DNA of 25,051 bases from Candidatus Vampirococcus lugosii (GCF_018420025.1 NZ_JAEDAM010000020.1:1-25051), one strand, 5' to 3'. Shown: positions 1 to 25,051, numbered from the stretch's first letter. Notes: generated by a model not told the origin, from the letters alone. Numbers and translations: made by a program.

Positions 1-156
1 TCTATTTCGGAAAAATTTTCAATTATGTAATATATATTCAACTACTTCTAACCAGGCATACATTATATTTTTTAGTTTATATCACATACAATCTTCTTTC
101 CTTAATTCTAATATCATTTCTTTAACCTGAGCTCATACTATTTCCAATCATACCAT
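1..156 (-). CDS. hypothetical protein, partial (C-terminus runs off the window at position 1)
   Basis: The minus-strand frame has no TAA/TAG from position 300 (stop 'cta' at 301-303) down to position 1, i.e. 100 codons. That is unlikely by chance in DNA this AT-rich. The only canonical start is ATG at 156-154 (MVGLEIVGAQVKEMILELRKEDCMGYKLKNIMYAWLEVVEYILHNGKFF...). The open frame upstream (LIKLIEETYKYLKQEYNLEKIHLRSEVERLNNYYN...) has no ATG/GTG/TTG. No family was recognised. Confidence 0.3.
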
Positions 157-307
157 AGCTAATCATATTGATGATAGTAATATATTATAATAATTATTTA
201 GTCTTTCAACTTCACTTCTTAAATGTATTTTCTCTAAATTATATTCTTGTTTTAAATATTTATATGTTTCTTCTATTAATTTAATTAAATTTAAAATAGT
301 CTAGTAC

Positions 308-335
308 TTGACAATATCAACTAATTATTTATATA
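308..335 (+). promoter_or_regulatory. sigma70-like promoter candidate for the ABC exporter
   Basis: TTGACA (308-313), a 16 nt spacer, then TATATA (330-335), 32 nt upstream of the ATG at 367. Caveat: -10-like hexamers are common in this AT-rich DNA. Confidence 0.4.
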
Positions 336-366
336 TATTTTATGTTTTATTTTAAATTATTAATAT

Positions 367-2133
367 ATGTGAGAAAAAATTGAAAAAAAAATAAGTGTAT
401 GAAATGTATTAAAATATTTATTTATTGAAGTTTGGAAAATTAGATATATAACTATATTTGCTTTTTTATCTATAGTTTGAATTAGTATTTTACAAACAAT
501 AATTCCTATATATTTCAAAGATATAGTAGATATTGCAGTTAATAACGATTTGACAAAAACAGAAATGTATGAACAAATAATGATAATATTTAATTATTTT
601 TTAATAACTATATTTTGAAGTTTTATATTTTGGAGAATTTGAGAATATTTATTAAGTTATGCTATTTTAAAATTAGACTACAACATAACTTATAATTCTT
701 TTAGTTCTTTACATAAACATTCTTATGATTTTTTTGTAAATAATTTTTCAGGTTCTTTAGTAAAAAAAACGAGTAGATTAGTAAATAGTATAGCTTCTAT
801 ATATGATATAATATTTTTTGATATAACTAGAATATTGGTAAGTATATGATTTATATTAATAATATTATTTATTGAAAATACTTATTTATGAGTAATATTC
901 TGAATATGGATATTATTAATTATAATATTTGCTTATTTTCTAAATAAAATTAGAGTTCCCTATGTGAAAGATAGTGCAAATGAAAACTCTACAGTTTTTT
1001 GACAATATTCGGATACTGTTACAAATAATTTTAATATAAAACTATTTTGAACATATGAAAAAGAAAAATTAAATTTTTTTGAAGCATTAGAAAAATGGAA
1101 AAAAAAAGAACTTAAATCTATTTATGTATTTATCATAGTATTTGCAATTATTTCTATAATAGTAATTGCTTGAGAAATATTATTACTATATACTACAATA
1201 CAGCTTTGGTATGATGATATAATTAGTATATGAGTTTTTGTTTTAATTGTAAATTATCAAATAATTATATCTAGTCAAATTTTTTGATTATCTTTTTTGA
1301 TGTGAAGATTAGCAAATAATTTTTGAGATAGTATAGATATGTTGGAAATACTTTGGAAAGATTATGAAATAATTGATAAACAAAATGCAAAAAAATTAAA
1401 AATAAATAAATGAAAAATTTATTTTCAATGAGTTAATTTTTCATACAAAAATCAAGAAAAAGTCCTTAATAATTTTGAATTAAATATAAAAGCTTGAGAA
1501 AAAATAGCAATTGTATGACAATCTGGTAGTTGAAAATCAACTTTAATCAAAATTTTATTTCGTTTTTATGATATTCAAGAATGAAAAATTTTGATAGATA
1601 ATCAAGATATATCTACAATAAAACAAGATAGTCTTAGAAGTCAAATTTCTATGGTTCCACAAGAACCTATACTTTTTCATCGTAGTTTATATGAAAATAT
1701 TGCTTATGCAAAAGATAATGTTAGTTATGATGAAGTAATAAAAGCTTCCAAAATGGCTCATTGTCATGAATTTATATCAAAATTACCAGAATGATATAAT
1801 ACTTTAGTTTGAGAAAGATGAATTAAATTAAGTTGAGGAGAAAGACAAAGAGTTGCTATTGCTAGATCAATTTTAAGTAATAATAAAATTATGGTCTTGG
1901 ATGAAGCAACTTCTAGTTTAGATTCAGAATCAGAAAAATATATTCAAGATAGTTTGGATAAAATAATGAAATGAAAAACAGTAATAGCTATTGCTCATAG
2001 ATTATCTACTATTATGAAAATGGATAGAATCGTAGTTATGAAAGATTGAAAAATCGTACAAGAATGAAGTCATGAAGAATTATTAAAAAAAGGTGGTTAT
2101 TATGAAAAATTATGGACTATTCAATCTTGATAA
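367..2133 (+). CDS. ABC transporter, fused permease/ATP-binding protein (type I exporter, MsbA/LmrA-like), 588 aa
   Basis: Table-25 translation is open from ATG 367 (preceded by TAA at 361) to TAA 2131. The N-terminal half is hydrophobic with a TMD signature ([45 protein letters not shown]). Walker A VGQSGSGKST lies at 1513-1542 with two of its Gly as TGA. Also present: Q-loop MVPQEP, signature LSGGERQR (1828-1851, first G=TGA), Walker [10 protein letters not shown] and H-loop AIAHRL. Confidence 0.92.
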
Positions 2134-2197
2134 TATGAAGATAAATAATTTAAATAAAATACTAACAAATATAGTAAGAAAAAAATAAAATATACTA

Positions 2198-2235
2198 AAA
2201 AAAATCTTCTACTTTTAAAAGTAAAAGATTTTTTT
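2198..2235. terminator. bidirectional hairpin between the convergent ABC exporter and secY
   Basis: aaaaaaatcttctactttt / aaaagtaaaagattttttt forms 19 nt inverted arms with one mismatch. An A-run and a T-run flank it, so either transcript ends in a U-tract. It lies 4 nt past the secY stop and 65 nt past the ABC stop. The stem is almost all A/T, so it is weak. Confidence 0.4.
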
Positions 2236-2239
2236 AAAA

Positions 2240-3583: not shown

Positions 3584-4039
3584 TTACTCAAACTTACATC
3601 AAACAGATTCCAATACAGATTTAGCTGATTTGGAATAAGAATCAATTCATACAAAAAACAACTTTTTATCTAATTCTCATTTAGCAAGAATTTTAACTAA
3701 AGAATTTTCTGAACGAATAATACCAAGTTCTTTTAACTTCTTTTTATTAATTGTATCTCAAGATAAGATTTTATTATTAAGTTGTAAATCAGATAAATTT
3801 ACTACTTCATAATTATCAACTAACTTATAATATCTCTTAAATCACCTTAATTTAGGTAATCTCATATTTAATGATGTTTGACCTCACTCAAATCAAGGAT
3901 TTTTAGTATATCATGATCTAGCTTTCTGTCATTTTATTCATCTAGTTGAATAATTACCTTTACCTGATCAGTTTCATCTTCCTAATCTTTTAGTTTTTTT
4001 TATAGATGAAGATCACTTCAAATAATCGTGTAAAAACAT
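3584..4039 (-). CDS. rplO: 50S ribosomal protein L15, 151 aa
   Basis: [67 protein letters not shown]. Both ends are in frame (ATG 4039, TAA 3586-3584). Confidence 0.93.
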
Positions 4040-4074
4040 ATTAATTTATAATTAAATTTTAAAACATATAATAT

Positions 4075-4548
4075 CTAACTTTTTTCTATATCTCTTTTGA
4101 ATCAATTAGATTTATACATAGTAAGAGCATAAATTGTAGCTAATGCATTATTTAACTTATTATTAGTTCAAATTATTTTTGAAAGGATATTATTATAACC
4201 TGCCAATTCCAATACTGATCTAACGGATGATCAAGCTTTCAATCAAGTACCAGGACCAGCTGGAATTAATCTAACAATAGCAGATTTAAATTTAAAAGTT
4301 TTCAAATAAGGTACAGAATCAGCACCTACTACAGGAACTTTTTTAAGATTTTTGTATGCATCATGAGTAGCTTTTTGTATAGCCCCTATAACATCACTAG
4401 ATTTAGCAATTCACAATCAGATAGTTCATTTTTTATCACCTATTACCATTACAGCTCTAAAAGCAAGTTGTCTTCATCATTTAGTAACTCTAGTAACTCT
4501 TCTTACTTCCAACAACCTCTCTTCAAATTGCTTATCTTTTTTTTCCAT
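4075..4548 (-). CDS. rpsE: 30S ribosomal protein S5, 157 aa
   Basis: Checked codon by codon: [53 protein letters not shown]...PAGPGTGLKAGSSVRSVLELAG. The stop is TAG at 4077-4075. Confidence 0.95.
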
Positions 4549-4598
4549 AAAAAGTATTTTTATAAATTAAAATTTATCACTATTTAAAATAGATAAGT

Positions 4599-4958
4599 TT
4601 ATATATTAATTTTTCAATCTCTTAATCATTCAGCAACTTGTTCAACCCTTCAATGATATATATATCAATTTCTATCAAAACAAACATCTACAAGATTTTT
4701 ATCTTGTAATTTTTTAGATAAATTCTGACCAACAATAAATGCTCTTTCCTTTTTAGTTCAAGTTTTAAGATTAAGATCATTAGATGATGCAATTACATTT
4801 CAATTAACATCAACTACTTGAGAATAAATATATTTATTAGTTCTATTAACTATAACTCTCGGCAAATTAGTATTTGTTTTCAAAATAGTATTAACTCTAT
4901 TTTTTCTTCTAGAATGCCTTCTTGATTTTTCAAAAATCTTATTAGATAATTTTTTCAT
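4599..4958 (-). CDS. rplR: 50S ribosomal protein L18, 119 aa
   Basis: ...LPRVIVNRTNKYIYSQVVDVNGNVIASS...FDRNGYIYHGRVEQVAEGLRDGKINI. ATG at 4958, TAA at 4601-4599. Confidence 0.93.
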
Positions 4959-4988
4959 TATTAAATCAAATTTAAAATATTTAAATTT

Positions 4989-5534
4989 TTATTTCTTAGC
5001 TGTTTTTCAAACCTTCAAAGTAATTTTTTCATCAAAATATCTAACTCATTTACCTTTATATGGTTCTGGTAATCTAAGAAATCTAATATTTGCTGCTACT
5101 TGTCAAACTAATTGTTTATCAATTCAAGAAATAGTAAGTATAAAATTTCATTTTGAATCTTTATCTACTTTAACATCAATTCATTCAGGAATTTCATAAT
5201 TAATAGGATGAGAATATCAAAGATTCAAAACAACTTTTTTTCATTCTACTTTTACAGAATATCAAACTCATATAACAAGAAGTTTTTTTTCAAATCAATT
5301 TTTAACTCATTCTACCATATTATTTATAAGACTTCTTACAAGTCACCATAAATTTGCATTACTATCCTCAGAAATTGAAACTTCAATATTTCAATCATTC
5401 TTTACAACACTAACTTCATTTGGGAAAGTATAATTTAATTGACCTTTTGGTCATTTTACTGAGATATTAGTTCATTTAATATCAATATCAACACCTTCCA
5501 ATATCAAGATAGGTAATTTTCAAATTCTAGACAT
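4989..5534 (-). CDS. rplF: 50S ribosomal protein L6, 181 aa
   Basis: [33 protein letters not shown]...GVGYSVKVEGKKVVLNLGYSHP...RFLRLPEPYKGKGVRY. Confidence 0.94.
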
Positions 5535-5558
5535 ATTTTTTATATTAAAATTTAAATC

Positions 5559-5963
5559 TTAATAAATTTCAGCAATTAATTCACCTCATAAACCATTATT
5601 ATAGGCTTCATGAGATGCCATAAGTCATTTATTAGTAGATACTATTCATATTCATTTTCATCAAGCAACTTTTTTAAGCATATCCCTTCAAACATAATTA
5701 CGTCTAGATGGTTTTGAAAGTATCTTAACAACAAGAATATCTTCATTAGTATTTACAACCTCTTTTAAAGTAATTTCAAAAGTTTTTTTTACTCAATCTC
5801 AAACAACTACAAAATCTTTAATAAAATTATATCTTTTCAATAAAAGTAATATTTCTTTCTTGAAATTAGAATACATAACATTATTAACGGTTGTTCTTCT
5901 TGCCATATAAGAATTTTTAATTCTTATCAACAAATCAGTCACAGGCGAATTAACAAAACTCAT
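5559..5963 (-). CDS. rpsH: 30S ribosomal protein S8, 134 aa
   Basis: MSFVNSPVTDLLIRIKNSYMARR...KPSRRNYVGRDMLKKVAGGKGIGIVSTNKGLMASHEAYNNGLGGELIAEIY. Confidence 0.94.
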
Positions 5964-5993
5964 TTTTAAATATTTCTTAAAAATTAAAATCTA

Positions 5994-6218
5994 CTATCGG
6001 CTTGATTTTCTTACTCAAACTATCAATCACTCTCTAGCATATTTTCTAAAACAAACTCTACATATTCAAAATTCTCTCATATAAGATCTAGTTCTACCAC
6101 AAACTCTACATCTATTATAATATTTTGTTGGATTATCAAGCTTGTTTCAAGATGCAAGAGACTGTAGTCTTTTTTTATCTAATTTCTCATGTTTAACTCT
6201 CAAAGATTTCCTAGCCAT
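5994..6218 (-). CDS. rpsN: 30S ribosomal protein S14, zinc-ribbon (C+) form, 74 aa
   Basis: MARKSLRVKHEKL...[42 protein letters not shown] carries a CxxC...CxxC motif. It is about 13 aa longer at the N-terminal side than the usual 61 aa Zn form. The stop is TAG at 5996-5994. Confidence 0.9.
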
Positions 6219-6240
6219 AATATATAATTATATATATAAA

Positions 6241-6780
6241 TTAATTAAATATGATTCAAAGTGTTTTCAATAACTCCTTAGCTTTATCATCATCAGTTGT
6301 AGTAGTAACTATATTTACTTGCAATCAATGAGGAGTTTTTATATCTTCTGGAAACAATTCAGGAAAAACACTTTGATTTTGAAATCATATGTTATAATTT
6401 CAATTTCCATCAAACTTTTTTGAAGAAAGTCATTCAAAATCCCTAACTCTAGGTAAAATAAGTTTAGAAAGTCTGTCCAAAAAATCGTAAGCTTTTTCTC
6501 TTCTCAAAGTTACTTTCAACATAACAGGCATTCAATCTCTCAATTTAAAATTAGAAACTGATTTTTTTGATTTAATAACAGTAGGCTTCTGACCTGAAAT
6601 AACTTCCATATTTGAAATCAAGTCTGAAAAATCTTTAACTCATTTTCTAGTTGCTAAAGATCAAATTCACATTGATATAACTATTTTATCTACTCTTGGA
6701 ACTTCAAATATATTTGATAGTCCAAATTTATTTTTTAAATCATAAATTTTTTTTTCTTTAAAATCCTTATAAAGATTCAT
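6241..6780 (-). CDS. rplE: 50S ribosomal protein L5, 179 aa
   Basis: [41 protein letters not shown]...[22 protein letters not shown]...[11 protein letters not shown]...FDGNGNYNIGF. Confidence 0.94.
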
Positions 6781-6820
6781 TAATTATAATATTAATTTTT
6801 AAAAAGACAATTATAATAAC

Positions 6821-7108
6821 TTAAGAATATATTTCTCAAGATTTCTTACAAACTCTTACTTTTTTTCAATCTCTCTCTTCTATTTTAACTTTTGTAGGTC
6901 ATTTTAATTTATCAGAATAAAGCATAACATTTGATATATCAATAGGCATAGTTTTATCAACAAATCATTCTTTTTTAACAGCTTTTTTCTTCAAATTAAC
7001 TCATTTCACTATAACTTTATTTCAAATAACCTTTTCTATAGTAGAAACTTTTTTTACATAACTTCAAGCAATTACAACTACTTTATCTCAAGATTTTATC
7101 TTTTTCAT
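6821..7108 (-). CDS. rplX: 50S ribosomal protein L24, 95 aa
   Basis: MKKIKSGDKVVVIAGSYVKKVSTIEKVIGNKVIVKGVNLKKKAVKK... (KOW motif). Confidence 0.9.
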
Positions 7109-7130
7109 AATATAAATTTTAATTCTAAAA

Positions 7131-7499
7131 TTATATAACTTCTTCTGCAATATTTGCAACCGTTCTAAATCATTTAGATCTTAATTCTTTTGCAACAGGT
7201 CAAAATATTCTTTTTCATAATGGTGAACATTCTTTATCTATTAATGCAACTGCATTATCTTCAAACCTAATATAAGTACCATCATCTCTTCTTATTTCTT
7301 TCCTAGTTCTAACAACTACTGCCCAACTAACCTCTCATTTTCAAATCTGTCAAATTGGATTAGCAGTTTTTATAGCAATAACTACTTTATCTCAAACAGT
7401 TGCAAATCATCAAAAGGGTCATTTAAGGACTCTTATAACTTTTCAAGTTTTAGCTCAAGAGTTATCAACAATTTTTACTTTAGACTCATTTTGTATCAT
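7131..7499 (-). CDS. rplN: 50S ribosomal protein L14, 122 aa
   Basis: [27 protein letters not shown]...[28 protein letters not shown]...GPVAKELR. Confidence 0.95.
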
Positions 7500-7545
7500 T
7501 TTAGTTTAGATATTATTAATAATAAAAGTGAATCAAGCTAACAAA

Positions 7546-7812
7546 TTAAGTATTTGGTTTCTGAATAATATCTACCAAAATCCATCTTTTCTGTTTACTT
7601 ATAGGCTTAGATTCTCTAATTTTTACAATATTTCATATTTGAGCAGAATTATTTTCATCATGAGCTTGATATTTTTTCTTAGATACATATCTTTTATTAT
7701 ACAAAGGATGAACTTTAACATTTTCAACCTCTACAGCTATAGTTTTATCTGATGAATTTTTTACAACTCTACCTACAAATTCTTTAATATTCTTTCAATT
7801 TATAATAGCCAT
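7546..7812 (-). CDS. rpsQ: 30S ribosomal protein S17, 88 aa
   Basis: ...FVGRVVKNSSDKTIAVEVENVKVHPLYNKRYVSKKKYQAHDENN...GNIVKIRESKPISKQKRW. Its ATG (7812-7810) overlaps the rpmC stop by 1 nt (TAATG). Confidence 0.92.
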
Positions 7813-8012
7813 TATTTATTGATTTTATGATGTAAAGCTGTATTAACTCTAGCAATATTTTTCTTCGTTAATTTAATTTTATGAGTTTGCTTCAAAGCTT
7901 TAATAGAATTCTGAATTTTTAAATCAAAAAGATCTTTTTTTAAAGCTTTTCTCAAGTCAACTAATTCTTTTAAATTTTTTTTAGAAAGTTCTATACTATT
8001 AAATTTATCCAT
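7812..8012 (-). CDS. rpmC: 50S ribosomal protein L29, 66 aa
   Basis: This is a track ORF that contains no TGA: MDKFNSIELSKKNLKELVDLRKALKKDLFDLKIQNSIKALKQTHKIKLTKKNIARVNT. Its position between rplP and rpsQ also supports the call. Confidence 0.9.
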   Translation of the reverse strand: MDKFNSIELSKKNLKELVDLRKALKKDLFDLKIQNSIKALKQTHKIKLTKKNIARVNTALHHKINK

Positions 8013-8072
8013 AATTACTTAAATAAGTATTAAATTATAAATGATTTTAATTAAGTAAAATCTAATTAAAAA

Positions 8073-8495
8073 CTATTTTACTTCTCATTTAGCAACTAAC
8101 CTAGTTGAAACAGGAAGTTTATAAGAAGCTTGCTTAAAAGCTTCTTGAGCAACTTTTTTACTAACTCAGTTTATTTCAAAAAGTATCCTTCACCTTTTTA
8201 CTCTAACTCTAAAAGCATCAACATCTCATTTACCTTTACCCATAGGCATTTCTAATCATTTTTTAGTATAAGGCACATCAGGAAAAACTCTTATCCAAAT
8301 CTTACCAAGTTTCCTAGTGTATCTAACTATCACTTTTCTAGCTGCCTCAATTTGTCTATTAGTAAGATATTCATTACTAGTAGCTTTAAGTCAAAACTCA
8401 CCAAATGCAACATAACTTCATCTACTTGAGACTCATTGTATTCTTCCTCTATGTTGTTTTCTATATTTCCATCTATTTGGAGTTAACAGTGACAT
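8073..8495 (-). CDS. rplP: 50S ribosomal protein L16, 140 aa
   Basis: [38 protein letters not shown]...[28 protein letters not shown]. The stop is TAG at 8075-8073. Confidence 0.95.
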
Positions 8496-8545
8496 TTTTA
8501 AATATAATATAATCAAATAAATTTAACAAATATATAAACTAATTT

Positions 8546-9178
8546 TTATTTATATAAATCTCATTTATATATCCAAACTTTAATTCACAAAACTCAATAT
8601 TTAGTTACTGCAGTTGTGTAATAATAATCTATATCAGCTCTTAATGTTTGTAGAGGAACTCTTCATTTTATAAATGTTTCTCATCTTGCTATATCAGCAC
8701 CTCATAATCTTCAAGTGATATAAAATTTAACTCATTTAGCTCATTTTTCCATAACTTTTTCTGTAAAAAATTTTCAAACTCTTCTAAACGGCATTCTTTT
8801 TTCTATTTGTTCAGCAGCTTGTTCAGCAACAATTTTAGATGAAAGTTCAGGAATTTTAACTTCTTTTACAGAAACTTTAAAATCTTTAGCAAATTTATTT
8901 TTTAAAATTTCTTGAAATTTATTTAAGTTCGCTCACTGCTTTCATATAATAACAGCAGGTTTTGAAGTAAATAAAATAAGCTCTCAATCTTTCTCAGTTT
9001 TTTTTATAACAATTTTAGCTATTCAAGACCTTTTAAAATAAGTATCAACTAAAGTATGAATTTTAACATCTTCTACAAAAAAGTTTGCACTTTGAGATTT
9101 AGTTTTCGCAAACCATTCTGTAGTCCATCATTTAGTAATTCAAGCCCTGAAACCTCTTGGATCTATTTTTTGTCACAT
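8546..9178 (-). CDS. rpsC: 30S ribosomal protein S3, 210 aa
   Basis: MGQKIDPRGFRAGITKGWTTEWFA...[51 protein letters not shown]. Confidence 0.95.
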
Positions 9179-9181
9179 AAA

Positions 9182-9523
9182 TTAATATTTAATATCTAAA
9201 ATAACTTTAACAAAGGATCTCTGTTTTTTATATTGATGAACTCTAGATCTTGATGCAAAATCAATTCTTTTTAATTTAGTTCATTTTCAAATTTCAATAA
9301 TTGAAATATACAAATCAGATTCAGAGAGACCTTCATTATTTTTAGCATTAGCAACAGCAGAGTTCAAAACTCTCAAAAGTATGTCGGAAGACTTATTTGG
9401 AATATGATTTAATATTCATTTAGCCTCAGATACCGATTTTCATCTAACCATTTTAGCTACTATATTTATTTTTTTTTCTGATGTTAAAGCATATTTAAGG
9501 GTAGATGTCAAAGATCTATTCAT
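9182..9523 (-). CDS. rplV: 50S ribosomal protein L22, 113 aa
   Basis: ...KINIVAKMVRGKSVSEAKGILNHIPNKSSDILLRVLNSAVANAKNNEGL...GKGTKLKRIDFASRSRVHQYKKQRSFVKV. Confidence 0.93.
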
Positions 9524-9549
9524 AATAATTTTATTTAAATTTATAAATT

Positions 9550-9807
9550 TTAAAAAGGATGTCATCTAAAAGTTCTAGTCAAAGCAAACTCTCAAAATCT
9601 ATGTCAAATCATTTCTTCTGTTACATAAACACTAATAAATTGCTTTCAATTATGTACAGCAAATGTAAATCATAACATTTCTGGACTAATTTGACATGCT
9701 CTATCCCATACTTTAAGAACTTTTTTTTCTCAAGACTCTTTCATAAGCTCAACCTTTTTTAATATCTTCGGATTTATATAAAAACCTTTTTTTAAAGATC
9801 TAGTCAT
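9550..9807 (-). CDS. rpsS: 30S ribosomal protein S19, 85 aa
   Basis: MTRSLKKGFYINPKILKKV...[52 protein letters not shown]. Confidence 0.95.
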
Positions 9808-9844
9808 TTACAATAAAATTTTAATTAATAAATTAACTCAAATA

Positions 9845-10690
9845 CTAGTTTCTAGTTCTTCTAGAAACAATAAATTTATCAGACCATTTTTTCTTTTTTC
9901 TAGTCTTTTTTCCAGGAGGTACAGGCTTTCAACTAAAAGACTTAGGATATTTAAGAGCAATATCTGTTCATCATTCTCATCATCAATGTGGATGATCAAC
10001 TGGATTCATTGCCTTTCATCTTACATGAGGTCTTTTTCACATCCATCTACTTCTTCAAGCTTTTCATAAAACTATATTTTTATGTTCTTCATTACCAACA
10101 ACTCATATAGTAGCCCAACAATTTTCATTAAATTTTCTAACTTCTCAAGAAGATAATTTAACAAAAACTATATGTAAATTAGTATCTTTACCTATAATTG
10201 TAGCAGAATTTCAAGCAGATCTCAATAATTTTCATTTAGTAAAAGGTATTACTTCCAAATTGAAAATTTTATATCATTCAGGAATATTTTTAAGCTGTTT
10301 TCTATAACCATTTTCATACTCATCAGTATTAGTATTCAAAATAGTATCTCATATAGATGCTCATTTCCATGCTATAACATATCTCTTTTCTCAATCCAAA
10401 AAAGATATCAAAGCTATTCTTGCTTTTCTATAAGGATCATATTCTATACTTACTACTTTTCCAGGTATATCTAATTTATCATAACCTATAAAATCAACTA
10501 TTCTATATAATTTTTTATGACCTCATCATCTAGATCTAACAGTAATTCTTCAAGAACTATTTCTTCATGCATTACTCTTCAAAAACTTCACCAAACTTTT
10601 CTCAGGTCTTTTCTGAGTCAATCAAGTAAAATCATATCAAGTCATATACCTTCTAGATGGTGTATATGGTTTATATACTTTTATTCACAT
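9845..10690 (-). CDS. rplB: 50S ribosomal protein L2, 281 aa
   Basis: [17 protein letters not shown]...[16 protein letters not shown]...[25 protein letters not shown]. The GGGEGG block at 9968-9985 is encoded by five TGA codons. The stop is TAG at 9847-9845. Confidence 0.96.
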
Positions 10691-10707
10691 TTTTTAAATT
10701 AAAATAA

Positions 10708-11055
10708 TTAAAAACTACTTAACTTATCAATTTTATCTTCAGAATTTAATGTAACGATTGCTCTTTTATATGATCTTCTAACTAAACCTTTTCTAGCTCT
10801 TAATTTATAAGGAACTTTTTGAATATTAACAGACACAGGAGAAACACCAAAAACTTCTTTTATAGCAACTTTTACATCATTTTTGTTAGCTAAACTATTA
10901 ACCTTAAAATAATATTTATTTAAATCACTTGTTTGCTTATATGTTTTCTCTGTACGAATTGGTTTAATTATAACATCATATACAGAAATTTTATTCAAAA
11001 CATTAGTTGAAACACTTTTTTTAGCTCTTTTTCTTAATATATTTTTGAAAGTCAT
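10708..11055 (-). CDS. rplW: 50S ribosomal protein L23, 115 aa
   Basis: This is a track ORF with no TGA and a real TAA stop: ...VYDVIIKPIRTEKTYKQ...YYFKVNSLANKNDVKVAIKEVFGVSPVSVNI. Its position between rplD and rplB also supports the call. Confidence 0.9.
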   Translation of the reverse strand: MTFKNILRKRAKKSVSTNVLNKISVYDVIIKPIRTEKTYKQTSDLNKYYFKVNSLANKNDVKVAIKEVFGVSPVSVNIQKVPYKLRARKGLVRRSYKRAIVTLNSEDKIDKLSSF

Positions 11056-11088
11056 TTTAACATAAATAGTATTAAATTTTAAATTTTA

Positions 11089-11721
11089 CTACGAAATAGA
11101 TTCTAATTTATTCAAAGAAGAAGAAAAGAATACTATTTTATTATGAGTAAGTAAATCATATGGATTAACATAATCTACATAAATATACTTAATATTAGGA
11201 ATATTTCTAAAAGATTTAATAGCAATATCATCTCATTTTGAAACAACTAATAATATTTTTTGTCAAGAAAGTCAATTATTATCCAAAGCTGAAACAGCAT
11301 TTTTTGTTTTAATATTATCAAAAGGAAAAGAATCAAAACAAAGTAATTGTCATTCTCTAGCTTTCAAAGTTAAAGAACCAAATAAAGCTTTTTTTCTAGC
11401 TTTTTTAGTCATATCTTTAGTAAAATTTCTAACATTTCTAGGTCAAAAAGATTTTCATCAATGCCTTCTGATTGGAGATGCAGCATCACCAACTCTAGCT
11501 CTTCAAGTTCATTTTTGTCTAAATAACTTCCTTCAAGATCAAACAACCTCTCATCTAGTTTTAACATGAGCTATATTTTTTCTAGAATTAGAAAGTTGTA
11601 AAAGAACAAATTCATGTATCAATTTTTTATTAATATTATCATCATTAAAAATAGAATCCGAAAGATTTCTAGTATCTATTTTTTCTCAATTAATATTAAA
11701 CACATCAACTGTATACGACAT
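11089..11721 (-). CDS. rplD: 50S ribosomal protein L4, 210 aa
   Basis: ...[46 protein letters not shown]. The stop is TAG at 11091-11089. Confidence 0.94.
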
Positions 11722-11764
11722 TTTCTATGTACTTAAATTAAATAAATTTTAAATAACTTAATAA

Positions 11765-12367
11765 TTATTTTAATTCCATTTTAACAAGCGAACCATAATA
11801 TCCAGGAACTGATCATTTAACAGCAACTAATGATTCATTATCAAATGAATATTTATTAATTATTTTAACATTTTTTAAAGAAATATTTGAAACTCACATA
11901 TGTCACGGCAATTTCTTACCTTTATTAACTCTTCTAGGTTTCATTCATCATATAGAACCAGGTCTCCTATGAAAATGTGATCAGTGACTTGATGGACCTC
12001 TAGAAAATCAATGCCTCTTAATAACTCATTGAAATCATTTACCTTTTGTAAGTCATTTAAGAAAAACAGTATCAAATCAATCCAAAAAAGAAAAATCTAA
12101 AACAGAACCTATTCCAAAATTTGATAAAACATCTTCACAAACTCTAAATTCAAAAACATTAGAATATTTTACTTTTTCTCATTTTTTTCTATCAAACTCT
12201 TTTTTTTCAGATCACACAATAATAGCAGTATATCAATCTTTTTCATTAGTTCTATGACCAATAACTTCTTGAGGAACTAATTTAAGTAAAGTTACTGGAA
12301 CATGTTTTCAGTCAATCCATAACTTTGTCATTTCTTGCTTTTTTAAAAGCATTCATCCCTTAGTCAT
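11765..12367 (-). CDS. rplC: 50S ribosomal protein L3, 200 aa
   Basis: MTKGGMLLKKQEMTKLWIDGKHVPVTLLKL...[52 protein letters not shown]. Confidence 0.95.
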
Positions 12368-12406
12368 AATTAATCATTTTTTTTTAAATTATTAAATTAA
12401 TTTCTA

Positions 12407-12727
12407 TTAATAAACTTTAACATCAACAGAAACTCAAACAGGAATCACTAAATTTTGAAGATACTCTACAGTTTTAGAACCTGTCTCTACAACATCAATA
12501 ACTCTAGAATAAGTTATTCTCTCAAATTGCTCTCTAGAATCTTTATAAACAAAATGAGCTTTCAAAACAGTATATTTTTTTATTTTTTTTGGTAAAGGAA
12601 TAGGTCATTTAAGCACTGCTCACGACTTAACCAAAAGTCACATAACTTTACCAACTGATCACTCCAAAGATTTAACATCATAACTTTTCAATTTTATTCT
12701 TAATTTAGGATTATTAGATTTTACCAT
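12407..12727 (-). CDS. rpsJ: 30S ribosomal protein S10, 106 aa
   Basis: ...LRIKLKSYDVKSLEGSVGKVMGLLVKSGAVLKGPIPLPKKIKKYTVLKAHFVYKDSREQFERITYSRVIDV. Confidence 0.95.
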
Positions 12728-14678: not shown

Positions 14679-15333
14679 ATGTTTATTAAAAAAAGTACTC
14701 GCAAATATAATTGAAAAACTTATGTTACTCATTATCTTGTTGAATCTTTTAGAGATAAAGATACAAAAAAAGTAAAACATAGAAATATAGCTAATCTTTC
14801 TGAATTGCCTCCAAAATCAAAAAATATAAAAATGAGATTATGTTGATGTCTATAAATAGAATATTTGAACCTAAAAGTAAAAATGCTCTCAAAAATTGGT
14901 TAAAACAAATTGATTGAATAAAACAAATTAATGATAATAATCTATATAAAGCAATAGATTATCTTGAAGATAATCAAAATGATATAGAAAATAAATTATT
15001 CAAAAAAAGAAAAGATACTAATTGTAAATTATATTTATATGATATTACGAGTACATATTTTGAATAAAAAGCTGTTGAAATGGCAAAATATTGATATAGT
15101 AGAGATAAAAGCAATGATAGATTGCAAGTAAATATATGATTAGTAACAGATACTAATTGATATCCTATAAGTATAGAAATATTGGAATGAAATATAAATG
15201 ATAAATCTACACTACAATCAAAAGTAAATGAATTAAAAGAAAGATTTAAAATAAAAGAAATTACATTTGTTTTTGATAGGTGAATGAAAACATTTCATTT
15301 TAATATTAAAATATTAAAACTTAAATTATTGTA
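14679..15333 (+). pseudogene. IS1634/IS4-family DDE transposase remnant (fragmented and 3'-truncated)
   Basis: Fragment 1 (14679-14828) reads MFIKKSTRKYNGKTYVTHYLVESFRDKDTKKVKHRNIANLSELPPKSKI*, a typical N-terminus for this family. Fragment 2 is in another frame (from 14845): ...NRIFEPKSKNALKNWL...KLYLYDITSTYFE* with TAA at 15064-15066. It then continues AKYGYSRDKSNDRLQVNIGLVTDTNGYPISIEILEGNINDKSTL...ITFVFDRGM, and similarity ends near 15288. The C-terminal half, including the catalytic E, is absent. The family call is from memory of motif patterns. Confidence 0.7.
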
Positions 15334-15370
15334 AATTATTTTTATATCTTTTTAAAATTTAATTAATATA

Positions 15371-18591: not shown

Positions 18592-18592
18592 A

Positions 18593-19288: not shown

Positions 19289-19508
19289 AGCAAATGAATT
19301 TAAAGAATTAAATAAGATAGAACAAAAATATTTTGCTAAAGATTTTTTTACAAAAGATTGATTATTTGATTTAGAAAAATTAGAAAATAAATTATCTTGA
19401 GTAATTCTTTTTACTGAACCAAAAGACAGAAAAGAATTAAAAGAATTAATAATTGAATTTTTAAACAAACAAGTAAAATTAAAATTTATAGAATAATCTA
19501 AAAAAATA

Positions 19509-22487
19509 ATGGAAACCAAATTATATAATTATTTATCAAAATCATTACTTGAAAAAGATATTTATTTTGGAAATATTGAAATACAAAAAAAGATAGAAGA
19601 TTTGAAACAAAATACTCTAGGACTTGAAGAAAAATATATAAAAAAGATTATAAGTTATTTAAAAACTTATAATAAATTTTTGTTATCACAATGAAAAAGT
19701 GAAGTCCGTTTGAGATATTATCAAATCCTTACTTTGTATTTTGCTGAAATGTATTTTGATATAAAAGATGAAAAAGAAATGGATAGTTTTTCAAAAAACT
19801 CTCTTGCTTATTGGATGGCAACTTGAAGCTGAAAAACTATTGTAATGCACTTAAATATTTTACAATATTTAGATAAAATCAAAAATTATAATAAATTTCA
19901 AATTATTTTTACTACTCCTTGAGTAAATCTTATAGACCAACATAAAGAAGAATTAAATCCTTTTATAGATTTTCTAAATAGTAAATATAATAATAAAATA
20001 AATTTAATTATAGATACTACTTCATCACTTTTGAATAAATGAAGTGAATATTATAGTTTAGCTTGAAATAAAAGAGCAAAAAGACTTATTTTGATAGATG
20101 AAGCTCATATTTGAACAAGCTCAAAAGAAGAATGAGTTTTTTACAAATTTAGAAACGAATTAAATAAAGAAAATAGTTTTTTATTTGAATATTCTGCAAC
20201 TTTTCATAATTTGAGTAAATGATTAGAGAAAGAATATGAAAATCAAATAATTTATGATTATAATTATAATTTATTTTATAAAGATTGATATGGAAAAGAT
20301 TTTAGTTTTAAACAAGTTTGAAATGATGTTTTAGTTTGAGATAATGAAAATGAATTAAAACAAAATCTTGATAAATGTCTGCTAGTAATAAATGAAAAAA
20401 TAGATATTTGGAGTAATTTAAGATGATATACATGAGATAAACAAAAAAGTTTATTTTGAGATTTTAATATGTTTCCTGATAAACCTCTAATAACTTTTAT
20501 GTGAAATACTGTAAATAATAAAAATAAAAAAGATAAAGACCCTGAAATAAGTGATATTTCAAATATTGTTTATTATTTAGCAAATTTAAGTGAAAATGAA
20601 AAAAAGAATTTTGAGAATGTTTTTAATTATAAAATATCTTGAAAATTAACTATTACCAGAAATAAATCAGTAATAGATGAATTATTATTATCATATTGAG
20701 ATGATTGAAAATATTTTTGAATTATCAATGTATGAAATTGAGATAAATTTTTTAATGATCTTGATTTGCCAAATATAGAAAAGAAAAAAATAGAAATAAT
20801 AGATAGCAAATATTTATTCAAAAATATAGATAAAAAAGATAGTCCTATAAATTTACTTATTTGAAGTAGAAAATTTGCTGAATGATGGAATAGTTTCAGA
20901 GTATCAGTAATTGCTCTTATAAATTTAGGAAGTAATGCTTGAAATAAAATTATTCAAATATTTGGTAGATGAGTAAGATTGAAATGATTAAAAGATGATT
21001 GAAAAAGAAAATATACTCAACACGAAAAAGATTATTTTGAATTATGAAATAATAATGAAGATAAACTCAAAAAGATTGAAACTTTGAATATTTTGAGTGT
21101 TAAAAAAAGTTATCTTGAAACTTTTACAAAAAAAGTAAATGAAGAAATAAAATATACTCATTCTTTCAAAATAAAAGTAAATCCAAATTTAATAAAACTA
21201 AATTCTTGAGATGATATAGAATTTGAAGAATACAAAAATCATCTTCCTATTTTCAAACTTTCAAAAAAAGAAATAAATTATAAAAATATAATTCTTGAAT
21301 GAAATGATATTTATTATTCTTATTTAGATGAAAATACAATAATTGAAGATGAAAAAATAAGTAATTTCAATTTTTCTCTTGATTTCAGAATAGATAAAAC
21401 AAAACCTTGATTATGTATCAAAAATAATTTAAAAACAAAAATAGAGGCTTTTAAAAGCTATATAAATATATATAAAATCAATCAAATTATAAAAGATAAT
21501 TTATGAGAGTACAAAATTAATTTATATATAAAATTTTGAAATAATTTAATAGATTTTGATTATAAAAGTATTTTTGATTTTATAGATGAAATAAAATATG
21601 ATAATAAGTTATGAAATAATTTGTGAAAAATAGAAAAAACAATAATAATTGTAATAGATGAATTTTTGAAAAAACTTAAAAATAAAGTAAATCATAGAAT
21701 AAATAGTAAAAATATAGTTTATAATAAAGTTTTAAGTCAAAAAACAGAAACTAATCCTACTTGAGATTTTATAGAAGAATATATAATTACAAAAGAGTTT
21801 GAGAGTGAAAATGAAAAACTTGAATATATTGAAAATATTGAAACTGAAAAACAAAAAATTATTGATATTTTATATAAAAACTTTGATAAACATATTTATT
21901 CTCCACTTCTAAAAGAAGATGATAATCATTCAAATTTAGGAATAAATATTTCTCCTGACAAATTAAATTTTTGAGAAAAATTATTTATAGAAAACATTAA
22001 AGATTATATTAATGAGAATTATAGAAATAATAAAAAATTAGATTTTTATTTATTGAGAAATGTAGAGAGTTTGAGAAGTATTTGAATATATCTGGAAAAT
22101 GATGAACATCCATTTTTTCCTGATTTTATTTTATGGATTATAGATAATAAAGAAAATAAAACTTATATAAATTTTATTGACCCAAAATGACAAGATTGAA
22201 TATTTGATAGAAATTCTTGAAATTTTAATGATAAAGCTAAAATTTGAAATAAACTTATAGATAATACTTTGAAAAATATTGAAGAAAATTTGAGTAAACA
22301 AAAAGATAAAGATATTGTTTTAAATTCTTTTATTATTCTTAAATCTTGAAGTGATTTATGAACAAGAAATACAGATAATATTCAAAATAAAATGCTTGAA
22401 AATAATATTTATAAAATAGATTGGATTTGAGAAGATAAACTTAATTGAAAATCTTATTTAGATTTAATATTTGAGAAAATATTATAA
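19509..22487 (+). CDS. res: type III Res-like restriction subunit: SF2 helicase plus C-terminal PD-(D/E)xK nuclease, 992 aa, intact
   Basis: All 993 codons were checked and only the terminal TAA (22485) is a stop. Motif I is AYWMATGSGKT (19818-19838, both Gly as TGA). Motif II is LILIDEAH (20091-20108) and motif III is YSATF. Motifs V-VI are LLIGSRKFAEGWNSFRV...QIFGRGVRL (20955-20981). The nuclease motif is FFPDFILWIID...INFIDPKG (22119-22190). It starts 13 nt after the antirepressor-like gene. Confidence 0.8.
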
Positions 22488-22619: not shown

Positions 22620-22655
22620 TAATACTTAAAATTTTATTTAAATAATTTAATTAAT

Positions 22656-24152
22656 TTGTCACCTAATTTAGTAATAAAAGATGCATTTTGGCAAATATTA
22701 TGAAGAATATTAAGTGCAATAGCTGGTTTACTTGTGATTAAAATGATAACTCCATTTCTATGACCAGAAAGATATTGAGATTATTCAACTATTTTGAAAT
22801 ATTTTGCTATATGGGCTGCTTTTGCAGATTTTGGATTATATGTAGTAGCTCTACAAAAATTATGAAAAATTAAAGAAGAATCCTACGAAAAATTACAAAA
22901 ATATTATGCAAAATTTGTAAGTACTAGATTTTTTATGATTTTTTGTGTTTATACTTTGGCAATAATAATTGCTTATTTAATACCAGCTTATAGCAGTAAT
23001 CCTTATATCGTATGGGGACTACCTTTATGAATGCTTTTTAGTGCATCTTTTATGGTAAGTTGAATATTGCAAGCTCCACTTCAATTATTTTGGCAAATGA
23101 AACATTTGAGTATAGCTTTGGTCTTGGCAAGAATTTGACAATTATGACTTTTAGTATTTATAATTTTTTATTTATTTCCACAAATTAATTTTGATTGATG
23201 AAAAAAATCAATATTAGTATTTTCATTAATTATATTTTCTGTATTATTTTCTTGAATATTACAAATAATTTATGTTTATATTGTTTGAAGAAAATATCTT
23301 CCCTTAAAACGAAATTTTGATATAGAATTTACAAAAAATATATTTTTTAATAACCGAAAATATTGACTTGCATATTATTTAAGTAGTTTTCATACTTTAG
23401 TAGTTTTAATTTCACTTTCTATATTTTTTCCAACTACTGAAAATTTTACTTATGTATGAATTTGGGCTTTGGCATTATCTTTATTGGAAATATTACTTAT
23501 AGTTCCACAGAGTTTATGAAATGCACTTATTCATAAAATTTCTACAAAAATAAAAGAAGAAAAACTTATTAGTTATTGATATATGATGATTTTTACTATA
23601 TGGATATGATTAGTATTTATGATTAATTTTATGATATTTGGTCAAGAAATAATATATTTTATTTGATGAAATGATTATATATGAAATTGACAAATATGAT
23701 CTGATTATATTCTTTATTTTTTATGAATAGTAATAGTTTTGAGTTTTATTAAACAAATATTTAATTATATATTTGTATCAAATAATTTACAAAATAATTT
23801 ATTATTTATAAACTGATTTTGAGTATTTTTAGGTTTAATAATATGAATACCACTTATATTAAATTATAATATTATATGATGAATTATTACACAAATACTT
23901 TTGGAAGTGCTTTTTGTTGTATGAGCATTATTCGTAGCTTGGAAAAATAATTCTTTACCAAAAGTAAATATAAAAGTTTTATTTACAATAATTTTTATTA
24001 TGTTATGAATTTTATTGTTCGGTCAAAATTTACTACAAAATAATGATTATACAAATTTTATAAATTTTATTTTATATGTTATAATTATTAATATATTAAT
24101 ATTATTATTATCTTACTACCCTATCAAAAATATTATGAGAAATTTAGGTTAA
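22656..24152 (+). CDS. MOP-superfamily polysaccharide/oligosaccharide flippase (Wzx / 'polysaccharide biosynthesis protein' type), about 498 aa
   Basis: The frame is open from 22623 to TAA 24150 (checked codon by codon). The protein is highly hydrophobic with many predicted TM segments. The N-terminal signature is FWQILGRILSAIAGLLVIKMITPFLGPERYGDYSTILKYFAIWAAFADFGLY. A TTG start at 22656 is assumed; the first in-frame ATG is 29 codons further in. Confidence 0.7.
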
Positions 24153-24197
24153 ATATTTTTTTATATATAAGAAATAGTAGCATTGTTTACAGTTTTT

Positions 24198-24884
24198 TTA
24201 TTTTCAGTGATAAAACTCATCTATAATTTCATATGGTGTTTTATTATCAATTCATTTATGAACTTTGACACAATTATATAGATTTACAAATCTTTTTAAA
24301 GACTTTTTTTTATTTTCTCTTGAAATGAATGTTTCTTTACTATGTCGCATATCCATTAATATTCTTATTACTCTTTCAGCTTTACCGTTTGTTTGTGGTC
24401 TTTTTAATTTTGTGTATTTTTTCTTTATTCAGGCTTCAAGACAATATTTCATAAGTTCATAATCTGGTGTTCACTTATATTCTTTAATTTTTTCTTTATC
24501 GTCTTTTATGTAAGGTAGTTTTTTTGTATCCATATGAAACATTTCTCATGGATATGTTTTGTTTTATCTTCTTGCTTGTGCATTTTTTTTTAATGTTTTC
24601 TTGTATCTTCTTGCTTGTGCATTTTTCTTCTTTAATGTTTTCTCTTCAATTTTTGATAGTCTTTTAAATCAGTATGCTAATCATCTAAATCTTGTGTTTG
24701 TTGAATTACATATCTGAAATTCTTTTACTCTAGCTCTCTTTATCACTTTATACACTGTTGGTCTGCTTATATTATATTTATTTGCCAAATCCACAACAGA
24801 CCATTGATCACAATATAGTTTTCGAATATGTTTACGATTCTTTTCTGTTAGTCTCTGATTTTTATGTTCTTTTTTTGAGTACAT
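24198..24884 (-). pseudogene. IS481-like (rve integrase family) transposase remnant
   Basis: The N-terminal HTH is the track ORF 24681-24884 (...VDLANKYNISRPTVYKVIKRARV...). With table 25 it continues ...RFRGLAYGFKRLSKIEEKTLKKKNAQARRYKKTLKKNAQARR* with an in-frame TAA at 24566-24564. It then reads NKTYPGEMFHMDTKKLP...KEYKGTPDYELMKYCLEAGIKKKYTKLKRPQTNGKAERVIRIL...NLYNCVKVHKGIDNKTPYEII. The distance from 'MDTKKL' to 'TNGKAER' is only about 47 aa, versus roughly 125 aa in intact relatives as I remember them. The core carrying the second catalytic D therefore appears deleted. Confidence 0.7.
24552..24645. repeat. imperfect tandem repeat, 39/42 nt unit, 2 full copies plus a partial one, inside the IS481-like remnant
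   Basis: Copy 1 (24565-24603) is tatcttcttgcttgtgca-t9-aatgttttcttg. Copy 2 (24604-24645) shares the identical 18 nt core, then has tttttcttcttt-aatgttttctc. A partial third copy of the aatgtttt segment lies at 24552-24564. The unit encodes the repeated peptide KTLKK(K)NAQARR. Confidence 0.9.
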
Positions 24885-25001
24885 GTTATATGTATATTCA
24901 TATTTTGTTTTTTACATAAATAAAAATTTTATCTATTATATCTTTTTGTGTAAACAACTCTAGTCTATATTACATTTAATTATTTAAAATAAAATTATAA
25001 A

Positions 25002-25020
25002 ATTTGTGTAGTACACAAAT
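25002..25020. repeat. perfect 9 bp-arm palindrome ATTTGTGTA-G-TACACAAAT upstream of the IS481-like gene
   Basis: Read directly: 25002-25010 is the reverse complement of 25012-25020. It lies about 120 nt upstream of the transposase ATG (24884). It could be an operator-like site or an IS-end element. Confidence 0.6.
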
Positions 25021-25051
25021 CTATTTTTATTTTCTTGCAAATCCTTGTCTA

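Follow-up and report, generated by a model that had tools for sequence, protein, structure and literature searches.

Among the genetic codes in which the opal codon UGA has been reassigned, code 4 reads it as tryptophan and is used by the Mycoplasmatales, the Entomoplasmatales and several insect endosymbionts. In code 25 (NCBI table 25) UGA instead specifies glycine, and is expected to be read by a tRNA with the anticodon UCA that carries the glycine identity elements G1:C72, C2:G71, G3:C70 and U73. Rinke et al. 2013 is reportedly among the sources for this code, which is the closest to that of the DNA described here. Proteomics of the sister group BD1-5 assigned 40 UGA peptides to glycine against 1 to tryptophan (Hanke et al. 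2014, PMC4032931). For the Absconditabacteria, Codetta further predicts that CGA and CGG have been reassigned from arginine to tryptophan, with matching tRNAs (Shulgina and Eddy 2021, eLife, PMC8629427); the main text of that study does not mention Ca. Vampirococcus lugosii by name, and CGA as tryptophan is also predicted for the clade in PMC13092985. The V. lugosii genome itself (Moreira et al. 2021, Nat Commun, PRJNA678638, PMC8080830) was obtained from whole-genome-amplified single consortia, and its authors called genes using Prodigal with table 25 and stated that UGA encodes glycine. The reading of UGA as glycine in V. lugosii is therefore already known and is not a new result.

We analysed a stretch of 25,051 bp, referred to below as the window. 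On sequence evidence it is almost certainly a complete contig of Ca. Vampirococcus lugosii, a CPR bacterium of the Absconditabacteria (SR1), in which UGA is a glycine sense codon and translation would terminate at UAA and UAG only. Its flippase is 100% identical to WP_213348842.1/MBS8121882.1 of Ca. Vampirococcus lugosii, which is classified in the phylum Absconditibacteriota, and the nearest match to its EF-Tu among GTDB representatives is an Absconditabacterales metagenome-assembled genome (78% identity). These affiliations place the contig in the Absconditabacterales or BD1-5 (GTDB class JAEDAM01) and bear out the first-pass annotation, which had assigned it to SR1/Absconditabacteria or Gracilibacteria from the sequence. 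The window is the same sequence as a contig of the published genome, and both have UGA as glycine.

The window encodes an ABC exporter, SecY, 20-21 ribosomal proteins, EF-Tu, a type III Mod/Res pair flanking an AntA-like ORF, and a flippase (Table 1). The GC content of its DNA is 22.9%. Ribosomal gene identities were taken from Pfam matches on a 99.9%-identical contig (L081), from Pfam for L3, L18, S5, L15 and L22, and from tblastn against 78 standard-code loci. No L30 gene is present in the operon: the 35 bp between S5 and L15 contain no ORF. The absence of uL30 from the spc operon is in keeping with the CPR, whose members are described as often lacking uL1, bL9 and/or uL30 (PMC9297842). Three tRNA genes precede tuf; the same three do so in an Absconditabacterales relative (L001), where they are arranged differently. 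One type III restriction enzyme has been reported for the V. lugosii genome (PMC8080830), possibly the system formed by the Mod and Res genes at 15432-22487.

Table 1. Features of the 25,051-bp window. TGA and GGN give the numbers of each class of codon in the feature.
Feature	Coordinates	Strand	Evidence and remarks
ABC exporter (transmembrane domain + ATPase), 588 aa	367..2133	+	Pfam ABC_membrane, ABC_tran; 29 TGA vs 5 GGN; stop TAA
SecY, 439 aa	2240..3559	-	Pfam SecY 1.8e-67; 28 TGA vs 6 GGN
Ribosomal protein operon	3584..12727	-	20-21 genes (20 with coordinates); 182 TGA vs 54 GGN; order S10, L3, L4, L23, L2, S19, L22, S3, L16, L29, S17, L14, L24, L5, S14, S8, L6, L18, S5, L15
L15	3584-4039	-	Pfam
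S5	4075-4548	-	Pfam
L18	4599-4958	-	Pfam
L6	4989-5534	-	Ribosomal operon
S8	5559-5963	-	Ribosomal operon
S14	5994-6218	-	Ribosomal operon
L5	6241-6780	-	Ribosomal operon
L24	6821-7108	-	Ribosomal operon
L14	7131-7499	-	Ribosomal operon
S17	7546-7812	-	Ribosomal operon
L29	7812-8012	-	Ribosomal operon
L16	8073-8495	-	Ribosomal operon
S3	8546-9178	-	Ribosomal operon
L22	9182-9523	-	Pfam
S19	9550-9807	-	Ribosomal operon
L2	9845-10690	-	Ribosomal operon
L23	10708-11055	-	Ribosomal operon
L4	11089-11721	-	Ribosomal operon
L3	11765-12352	-	Pfam
S10	12407-12727	-	Ribosomal operon
EF-Tu (tuf), 392 aa	12806..13984	-	16 TGA vs 16 GGN (15 of them GGT)
tRNA-Ile(GAU)	14131-14207	-	ARAGORN, Rfam
tRNA-Pro(UGG)	14211-14286	-	ARAGORN, Rfam
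tRNA-Phe(GAA)	14298-14369	-	ARAGORN, Rfam
IS1634-family transposase remnant, truncated	14840..15334	+	NCBIfam transpos_IS1634 1.4e-39, profile 72-219 of 483; contains TGA codons
DNA methyltransferase (type III Mod-like), 945 aa	15432..18269	+	Pfam N6_N4_Mtase 5.3e-19; 37 TGA vs 10 GGN
AntA-like ORF, 212 aa	18650..19288	+	Pfam AntA 2e-5, 25.5 bits, under the curated cutoff of 27; 14 TGA vs 3 GGN
Type III restriction Res helicase, 992 aa	19509..22487	+	Pfam ResIII, DEAD; 47 TGA vs 6 GGN
Oligosaccharide flippase, 498 aa	22656..24152	+	Identity to WP_213348842.1; TTG start; 30 TGA vs 7 GGN
Flippase CGA codons	23310-23312, 23355-23357	+	Sequence
IS481-family transposase remnant (HTH part 24564-24884; C-terminal rve part 24198-24542)	24198..24884	-	Pfam rve_3; NCBIfam transpos_IS481 5.8e-21, profile 199-283 of 284
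IS481 remnant CGA codons	24345-24347, 24822-24824	-	Sequence

Recoded phages are known, and the restriction-modification system, the AntA-like ORF and the two IS remnants could suggest that the window derives from a stop-codon-recoded phage or mobile element instead of a cellular chromosome. However, a complete S10-spc operon, tuf, secY and tRNA genes make up more than half of the window, and the flippase is identical to a protein on a V. lugosii genome contig, so that we regard a phage or mobile origin as exceedingly improbable.

Under the standard code 3 ORFs in the window reach 80 aa, and stop-to-stop ORFs of 100 aa or more number 6, totalling 695 aa. Treating TGA as a sense codon raises the latter number to 43 (9493 aa in total). 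Among these are 27 intact, non-overlapping and colinear genes, none of which is interrupted by TAA or TAG. ORF lengthening is by itself not specific for UGA recoding, because at this base composition treating TAA as sense also produces 62 ORFs of 100 aa or longer, 9426 aa altogether. It is the alignment columns, not ORF length, that decide the question of the code.

The ends of the genes agree with termination at UAA and UAG and read-through of UGA. All 27 intact genes stop at TAA (22) or TAG (5). In comparison with homologues, the median difference in C-terminal position is at most 2 aa in 15 of 20 genes, and the window protein is never more than 1 aa longer; yet all of these genes except L23, which has none, carry a TGA 3-47 codons ahead of the stop (19 of 20). 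On sequence grounds UGA may still terminate translation occasionally or be decoded ambiguously. The ABC exporter gene ends TGA-TAA.

We determined which residues in-frame TGA matches by masking it as X in the window proteins and running tblastn against the 78 standard-code loci, which surround tuf; 222 TGA positions were covered, giving 4579 alignment cells. Glycine fills 3616 of these cells (79.0%), compared with 79.7% at GGN codons and a background of 9.5%, and is the majority residue in 172 of the 222 columns (binomial P about 1e-128 against the background). The minor residues include tryptophan in 2 cells and cysteine in 7, and none of the 4579 cells holds a stop. Positions encoded by TGG have tryptophan as the majority residue in 10 of 17 cases. 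When the ABC ATPase domain was compared with ABCB1 from the PDB, in an alignment read by eye, 13 of 15 masked TGA codons fell on glycine, including those of Walker A and LSGGQ. In these alignments in-frame TGA is shown to behave just as GGN glycine codons do, and never like tryptophan, cysteine/selenocysteine or stop. The first-pass reading of UGA as glycine is upheld by this tally.

The conserved motifs on which that reading had been based are all present with in-frame TGA, although three of the spans given for them needed adjustment. The ABC transporter has L-S-TGA-G-E at 1828-1842, EF-Tu has a TGA at 13954-13952 and DCP-TGA-H for DCPGH, and L2 reads TGA TGA TGA GAA TGA TGA at 9968-9985. In S3 we find K-TGA-W-T-T-E-W-F, with TGG for both tryptophans. 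The Walker A span at 1513-1542 reads V-TGA-Q-S-G-S-TGA-K-S-T, that is, 10 codons, one beyond the nine-residue motif quoted. Conversely, 17901-17918 in the methyltransferase (S-TGA-S-TGA-T-T) and 19818-19838 in the helicase (A-T-TGA-S-TGA-K-T) each omit the first quoted residue, which lies one codon upstream (F-S-TGA-S-TGA-T-T at 17898-17918 and M-A-T-TGA-S-TGA-K-T at 19815-19838).

These columns also bear on whether UGA might be tryptophan, as in the Mycoplasma-type code 4. That code would give the same ORF lengths as table 25, and it occurs in lineages with small, very AT-rich genomes like this one. Moreover, for at least one database homologue (P0002), the protein and the table-25 translation of its gene disagree at 23 positions, and that gene has 22 TGA codons in addition to the start codon; TGA may have been translated as another residue there. 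Nevertheless, no TGA position has a tryptophan majority, TGA fills Walker A, LSGGQ, the neighbourhood of GHVDHGK and the GGGEGG of L2, and the host belongs to the Absconditabacteria; we consider code 4 highly improbable. The first-pass annotation had dismissed it on the grounds that TGG still encodes tryptophan. Both TGG as tryptophan and the exclusion of code 4 stand, but the one does not follow from the other: code-4 organisms encode tryptophan by both TGA and TGG, and code 4 is excluded because the TGA columns are glycine, not because of TGG usage. The window and code 4 share a reassigned opal stop, an AT-rich reduced genome and presumed loss of RF2, and differ in the amino acid inserted. 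Selenocysteine insertion or programmed read-through would likewise place UGA in frame, and UGA is the selenocysteine codon of many bacteria. At 1 in 18 codons, however, TGA is far from a rare signal, its columns are not cysteine columns, and Rfam and ARAGORN identified neither a SECIS element nor a tRNA-Sec in the window, which leaves this explanation with practically no probability.

A further possibility is that the TGA codons are real opal stops in pseudogenes, or errors of sequencing or assembly. The DNA is amplified material, and the window does contain true remnants, namely the IS481 fragment and the IS1634 fragment, the latter with an in-frame TAA at 15065-15067. But the 383 interruptions are all TGA and never TAA or TAG, they fall on glycine columns, and apart from them the genes are full length, with homologue-matched ends. 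In addition, two independent Logan assemblies (SRR13241708 and SRR13241709) match the window at 99.9% across 4632-14487, and related genomes have the same pattern. Decay or artefact is thus an extremely improbable source of the TGA codons.

With UGA read as glycine, TGA accounts for 383 of 490 glycine codons (78%). The window differs in degree, not in kind, from the known code in which UGA is glycine: both have in-frame UGA at conserved glycines, retain UGG for tryptophan, use only UAA and UAG as stops and belong to low-GC, reduced CPR hosts, whereas in a 38%-GC Absconditabacterales relative TGA makes up just 5% of glycine codons. The dominance of TGA is consistent with AT mutational pressure in a genome of 22.9% GC, TGA being the sole AT-rich glycine codon. 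By analogy with published work on this clade, UGA would be decoded by a UCA-anticodon tRNA-Gly and RF2 would have been lost, leaving RF1 to terminate genes at UAA and UAG. ARAGORN and Rfam detected no UCA-anticodon tRNA in the window, where the only tRNAs are those for Ile, Pro and Phe, and the related loci L001, L027, L081, L089 and L090 likewise yielded no glycine tRNA of this kind. The 25,051 bp contain no release-factor genes, and release factors are not mentioned in the text or supplementary text of the V. lugosii genome paper (PMC8080830).

The code of V. lugosii probably departs from the standard one in more than table 25 describes. Sequence comparison suggests that CGA is likely to encode tryptophan, not arginine, as a second and rarer reassignment. 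CGA occurs 3 times in the 6887 codons of the intact genes, and arginine columns are occupied by 232 AGA and 25 AGG codons. Three of the six CGA codons in called ORFs are informative. Three of the six, among them the informative one of the IS481 remnant, belong to decayed IS elements or to an incomplete ORF. The informative codons, a small sample, all fall on tryptophan and not arginine columns. The first is the last sense codon of S14 (5997..5999, - strand), at an invariant C-terminal tryptophan: the window gene ends SS-CGA-TAG, all 13 standard-code proteins end SW, and the relative L001 has SS-CGG-TAA. The second, at 23355-23357 in the flippase, occupies a column with R in 69 and W in 45 sequences. 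Every tryptophan column of this family is such a W/R mixture, whereas true arginine columns have R in 115-120 of 120 sequences; at the codon level, in three genomes, the W columns contain only TGG or CGA and the R columns only AGA or AGG. The third, at 24345-24347 in the IS481 remnant (the 'E-W' position), matches W in 4 of 4 aligned IS481 transposases. Because all three sit on conserved tryptophan positions and match the published prediction, we conclude that table 25 is probably incomplete here.

The alternative is that table 25 needs no extension, with CGA still arginine and the three sites real W-to-R substitutions. The NCBI annotation gives arginine for these codons, the informative sites number only three, and the other flippase CGA (23310-23312) lies in a variable N/K/R column. 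In L001, four of five aligned CGA codons face a window TGG, including two invariant tryptophans of S3, but one faces a window AGG; and of its CGG codons one is at the S14 C-terminal tryptophan and one at an L2 position that is arginine in 21 of 22 standard-code proteins. Set against this, no informative CGA occupies an arginine column, and the reassignment was independently predicted for the clade; we therefore judge plain table 25 to be unlikely. CGA as tryptophan agrees with the Codetta code in that CGA is rare and placed at conserved tryptophan positions and arginine is encoded by AGA. The prediction additionally covers CGG; as none of the genes in the window uses that codon, the comparison is confined to CGA. 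The window carries neither a tRNA(UCG) nor a tRNA(CCG), the tRNAs that would bear tryptophan identity elements under this code.

The evidence from the window thus suggests tryptophan where the deposited translation of the published genome has arginine. If CGA is indeed tryptophan, table-25 annotations of V. lugosii would carry arginine where the cell inserts tryptophan, for example as the last residue of S14.

To identify the residue specified by UGA, we masked every TGA as X in the window proteins and used tblastn to find the residue in each column, starting from 80 loci around tuf (one genome per species), of which 78 were searched and code-25 lineages were left out. The 222 TGA positions covered gave 4579 aligned cells, and glycine filled 3616 of these (79.0%), compared with 79.7% at the window's GGN codons, which served as a control. 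Glycine was the majority residue at 172 of the 222 positions (binomial P ~1e-128 against a glycine background of 9.5%), and tryptophan was the majority residue at 10 of 17 TGG positions. Of the 15 codons masked within the ATPase domain of the ABC exporter, 13 lay opposite a glycine of human or mouse ABCB1 in an alignment read by eye. The agreement between the TGA columns and the GGN control identifies UGA, as judged from sequence conservation, as a glycine codon in this window. This assignment had been made in the first-pass annotation on the basis of conserved motifs, all of which were found where it had placed them, to within one codon at three, and carry in-frame TGA.

The same tabulation, which had been suggested as a check, weighs against the other readings of UGA. 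Only 2 of the 4579 cells contained tryptophan, which excludes code 4 (UGA as tryptophan), and only 7 contained cysteine, which excludes selenocysteine; no cell contained a stop. Pseudogenisation is likewise excluded, because the masked TGA codons match glycine in the way that GGN codons do. The first-pass annotation had therefore been right to reject code 4, although its stated reason, that TGG still encodes tryptophan, is invalid, because code-4 organisms obtain tryptophan from both TGA and TGG.

Reading-frame length was less informative about the code. Under table 11 the window contains only three ORFs of at least 80 aa. Stop-to-stop ORFs that reach 100 aa number 6 (695 aa) under the standard code and 43 (9493 aa) once TGA counts as sense. 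This gain is weak evidence because, in such AT-rich DNA (22.9% GC), a control in which TAA was read as sense did as well (62 ORFs, 9426 aa). Moreover, tables 4 and 25 yield identical ORFs. The proposed re-calling of genes with tables 11, 4 and 25 thus bore out the gain over table 11 but could not separate 4 from 25, and ORF length was dropped as a test. With TGA as sense, the window holds 27 intact genes that have no in-frame TAA or TAG and end at TAA (22) or TAG (5).

We compared the C-termini of 20 genes with those of their homologues, using at least five standard-code homologues for each gene. The termini coincided, with a median difference of at most 2 aa in 15 of the 20 genes and an excess length never greater than 1 aa. 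The last TGA lay 3-47 codons 5' of the stop in 19 genes, L23 having no TGA, and no termination at UGA was seen among these 20 genes. Thus, UGA is read as sense at glycine positions and termination is by UAA or UAG; the sequence data would also be compatible with low-level ambiguous reading of UGA. From the literature on the clade, UGA would be decoded by a tRNA-Gly(UCA), RF2 would have been lost and RF1 would serve the remaining stops UAA and UAG. Neither the tRNA-Gly(UCA) gene nor release-factor genes are present within the 25,051-bp window, and the accessible part of the supplementary text of the Vampirococcus genome paper (PMC8080830) contains nothing on tRNA-Gly or release factors.

Features of the window and sites discussed in the text
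Feature	Position	Strand	Remarks
ORF 1-300	1-300		partial
CGA codons, uninformative	7-9; 23310-23312; 24822-24824
ABC exporter	367-2133	+	family search
V-TGA-QSGS-TGA-KST	1513-1542		in-frame TGA
LS-TGA-GE	1828-1842		in-frame TGA
secY, then spc/S10 operon, then tuf		-	family search and related loci
Operon order		-	L15, S5, L18, L6, S8, S14, L5, L24, L14, S17, L29, L16, S3, L22, S19, L2, L23, L4, L3, S10
L15 and S5 genes	3584-4548		35-bp spacer between them
CGA in S14	5997-5999		informative; last sense codon
AGG in L16	8193-8195		residue 101
L2 motif	9968-9985		TGA TGA TGA GAA TGA TGA
CGT in L23	10954-10956		residue 34
EF-Tu motif, TGA	13954-13952		in-frame TGA
tRNA-Ile, tRNA-Pro, tRNA-Phe	14131-14369
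IS1634-family transposase remnant	14840-15334	+	profile positions 72-219 of 483; in-frame TAA at 15065-15067
Mod methyltransferase		+
S-TGA-S-TGA-TT	17901-17918		in-frame TGA
120-aa ORF	18229-18591	+	other frame; overlaps final 41 nt of Mod gene
T6 run	18235-18241
AntA-like ORF	18650-19288	+	Pfam AntA, 25.5 bits (cutoff 27)
ORF 19263-19496	19263-19496
Res helicase		+
AT-TGA-S-TGA-KT	19818-19838		in-frame TGA
Oligosaccharide flippase	22656-24152	+
CGA in flippase	23355-23357		informative
IS481-family remnant	24198-24884	-	right end of window
CGA in IS481 remnant	24345-24347		informative
Tandem duplication	24554-24643		39 bp, 2.2 copies

The operon lacks an L30 gene in the space separating S5 from L15, which is a CPR trait. 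On the 3' side of secY, the convergent ABC exporter stands in place of the usual adk/map/infA/L36/S13. GC skew changes sign with the direction of the genes, being negative at 3-14 kb (the minus-strand operon) and positive at 15-23 kb (plus-strand genes), and the cumulative minimum at ~14.4 kb falls at the divergent gene switch at the tRNA cluster. We set this minimum aside as a candidate replication origin because the skew simply mirrors the coding strand.

The type III Mod/Res pair is interrupted by the AntA-like ORF, an unusual arrangement in which the AntA match itself is below threshold. The 120-aa ORF comes right after the T6 run and could be either a small gene of its own or a C-terminal extension of Mod that phase variation or an assembly error has put out of frame. 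Pfam gave no match for this ORF, the IS1634 fragment, ORF 1-300 or ORF 19263-19496; NCBIfam resolved the IS fragments alone. The IS1634 remnant is a pseudogene, because it contains an in-frame TAA and is truncated at 15334. The IS481 remnant keeps the HTH and C-terminal integrase parts, its catalytic middle being deleted, and the 39-bp duplication at its junction was the only relevant feature in repeat scans of the window.

The flippase query matched the oligosaccharide flippase family protein of Candidatus Vampirococcus lugosii (WP_213348842.1 / MBS8121882.1) at 99% identity, and the table-25 translation of the gene is identical to it; the window is one whole contig of this organism. V. lugosii belongs to the phylum Absconditibacteriota, and the closest EF-Tu among GTDB representatives (78% identity) is from an Absconditabacterales MAG that carries the same three tRNAs 5' of tuf in a different order; the SR1/Absconditabacteria-Gracilibacteria lineage proposed from the code is thus borne out. 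Two Logan assemblies, from SRR13241708 and SRR13241709, agree with window 4632-14487 at 99.9% identity, and the Logan contigs found through L23 are 9-11 kb and lie nearly entirely inside the window. Past 14487, ~350 bp 5' of the start of the IS1634 remnant, their ends (L081:1-942 from SRR13241709 and L082:1-938 from SRR13241708) are wholly unlike the window; variation between strains could account for this, as could a chimera formed during MDA or a repeat at which the assembly was joined.

Assignment of UGA to glycine in Absconditabacteria and in the V. lugosii genome is already known, having been published in 2013 and 2021; the genome paper reports the reassignment and took its CDS from Prodigal with table 25 (PMC8080830). 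The database homologue P0002 (gene at L090:5519-7015, in a relative) differs at 23 positions from its own gene as translated with table 25, a number to set against 22 TGA codons and one start codon, and some public Absconditabacteria translations may therefore carry another residue at TGA.

Capture of the codon is extensive. Of the 490 glycine codons, 383 (78%) are TGA; GGC is never used, and GGG appears three times among 6887 codons. In tuf, TGA makes up 50% of the glycine codons and nearly all the others are GGT. The figure is 77% in ribosomal protein genes and 84% elsewhere, which suggests some selection for GGT in tuf, the gene with the highest expression. Among relatives, the TGA share varies with GC content: 78% at 22.9% GC in the window, 74% at 25.7% in a Ca. 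Absconditicoccus praedator locus, 64% at 27.7% in another MAG and 5% at 38% in the Absconditabacterales locus L001. In the low-GC branch, the captured stop is now the majority glycine codon.

Absconditabacteria have also been predicted to read CGA and CGG as tryptophan (Shulgina and Eddy, PMC8629427), and a 2026 study took this as the Absconditabacterales code (PMC13092985). Of the six CGA codons in the called ORFs of the window, which contain no CGG, three are informative. The first ends S14, a protein that terminates in ..SW* in 13 of 13 standard-code homologues and has CGG at this codon in L001. The second falls in a flippase column where, among 120 listed homologues, 69 have arginine and 45 have tryptophan; the named members of this set are mostly Absconditabacteria or Gracilibacteria. 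Among these homologues, 5 of the 7 columns in which the window has TGG are similar mixtures of tryptophan and arginine, the remaining 2 containing tyrosine as well, and conserved arginine columns have arginine in 115-120 of 120. At the DNA level, the flippase genes of three genomes use only TGG or CGA in tryptophan columns and only AGA or AGG in arginine columns. The third lies opposite the tryptophan of ..EW.. in 4 of 4 IS481 transposases. In L001, 4 of 5 aligned CGA codons face TGG in the window, two of them at S3 tryptophans that all 21 standard-code genomes share. No CGA in the window falls on a conserved arginine.

These alignments, a small sample of three informative sites, indicate that CGA probably encodes tryptophan in V. 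lugosii. Its code is thus likely to be table 25 with a second change, CGA (perhaps also CGG) to tryptophan. We know of no NCBI translation table in which CGA is tryptophan. Separately, the CGT in L23 faces isoleucine or valine in all 13 standard-code homologues and the AGG in L16 faces proline in 21 of 21; both are probably ordinary substitutions, and other CGT and AGG codons lie opposite arginine or lysine.

For annotation, the choice of code matters: under table 11 the contig looks almost non-coding, and under table 4 all TGA-encoded glycines (78%) are written as tryptophan. What the present analysis adds to published work is modest: chiefly independent support for the so far only predicted reading of CGA as tryptophan, and hence for errors in deposited translations, besides the majority status of the captured stop among glycine codons in the low-GC branch. 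If this reading is correct, the deposited proteome has arginine where the cell inserts tryptophan, for example at the S14 C-terminus and in flippase WP_213348842.1, and the Codetta prediction would extend to a described predatory species in which UGA has also taken over from GGN as the principal codon for glycine.
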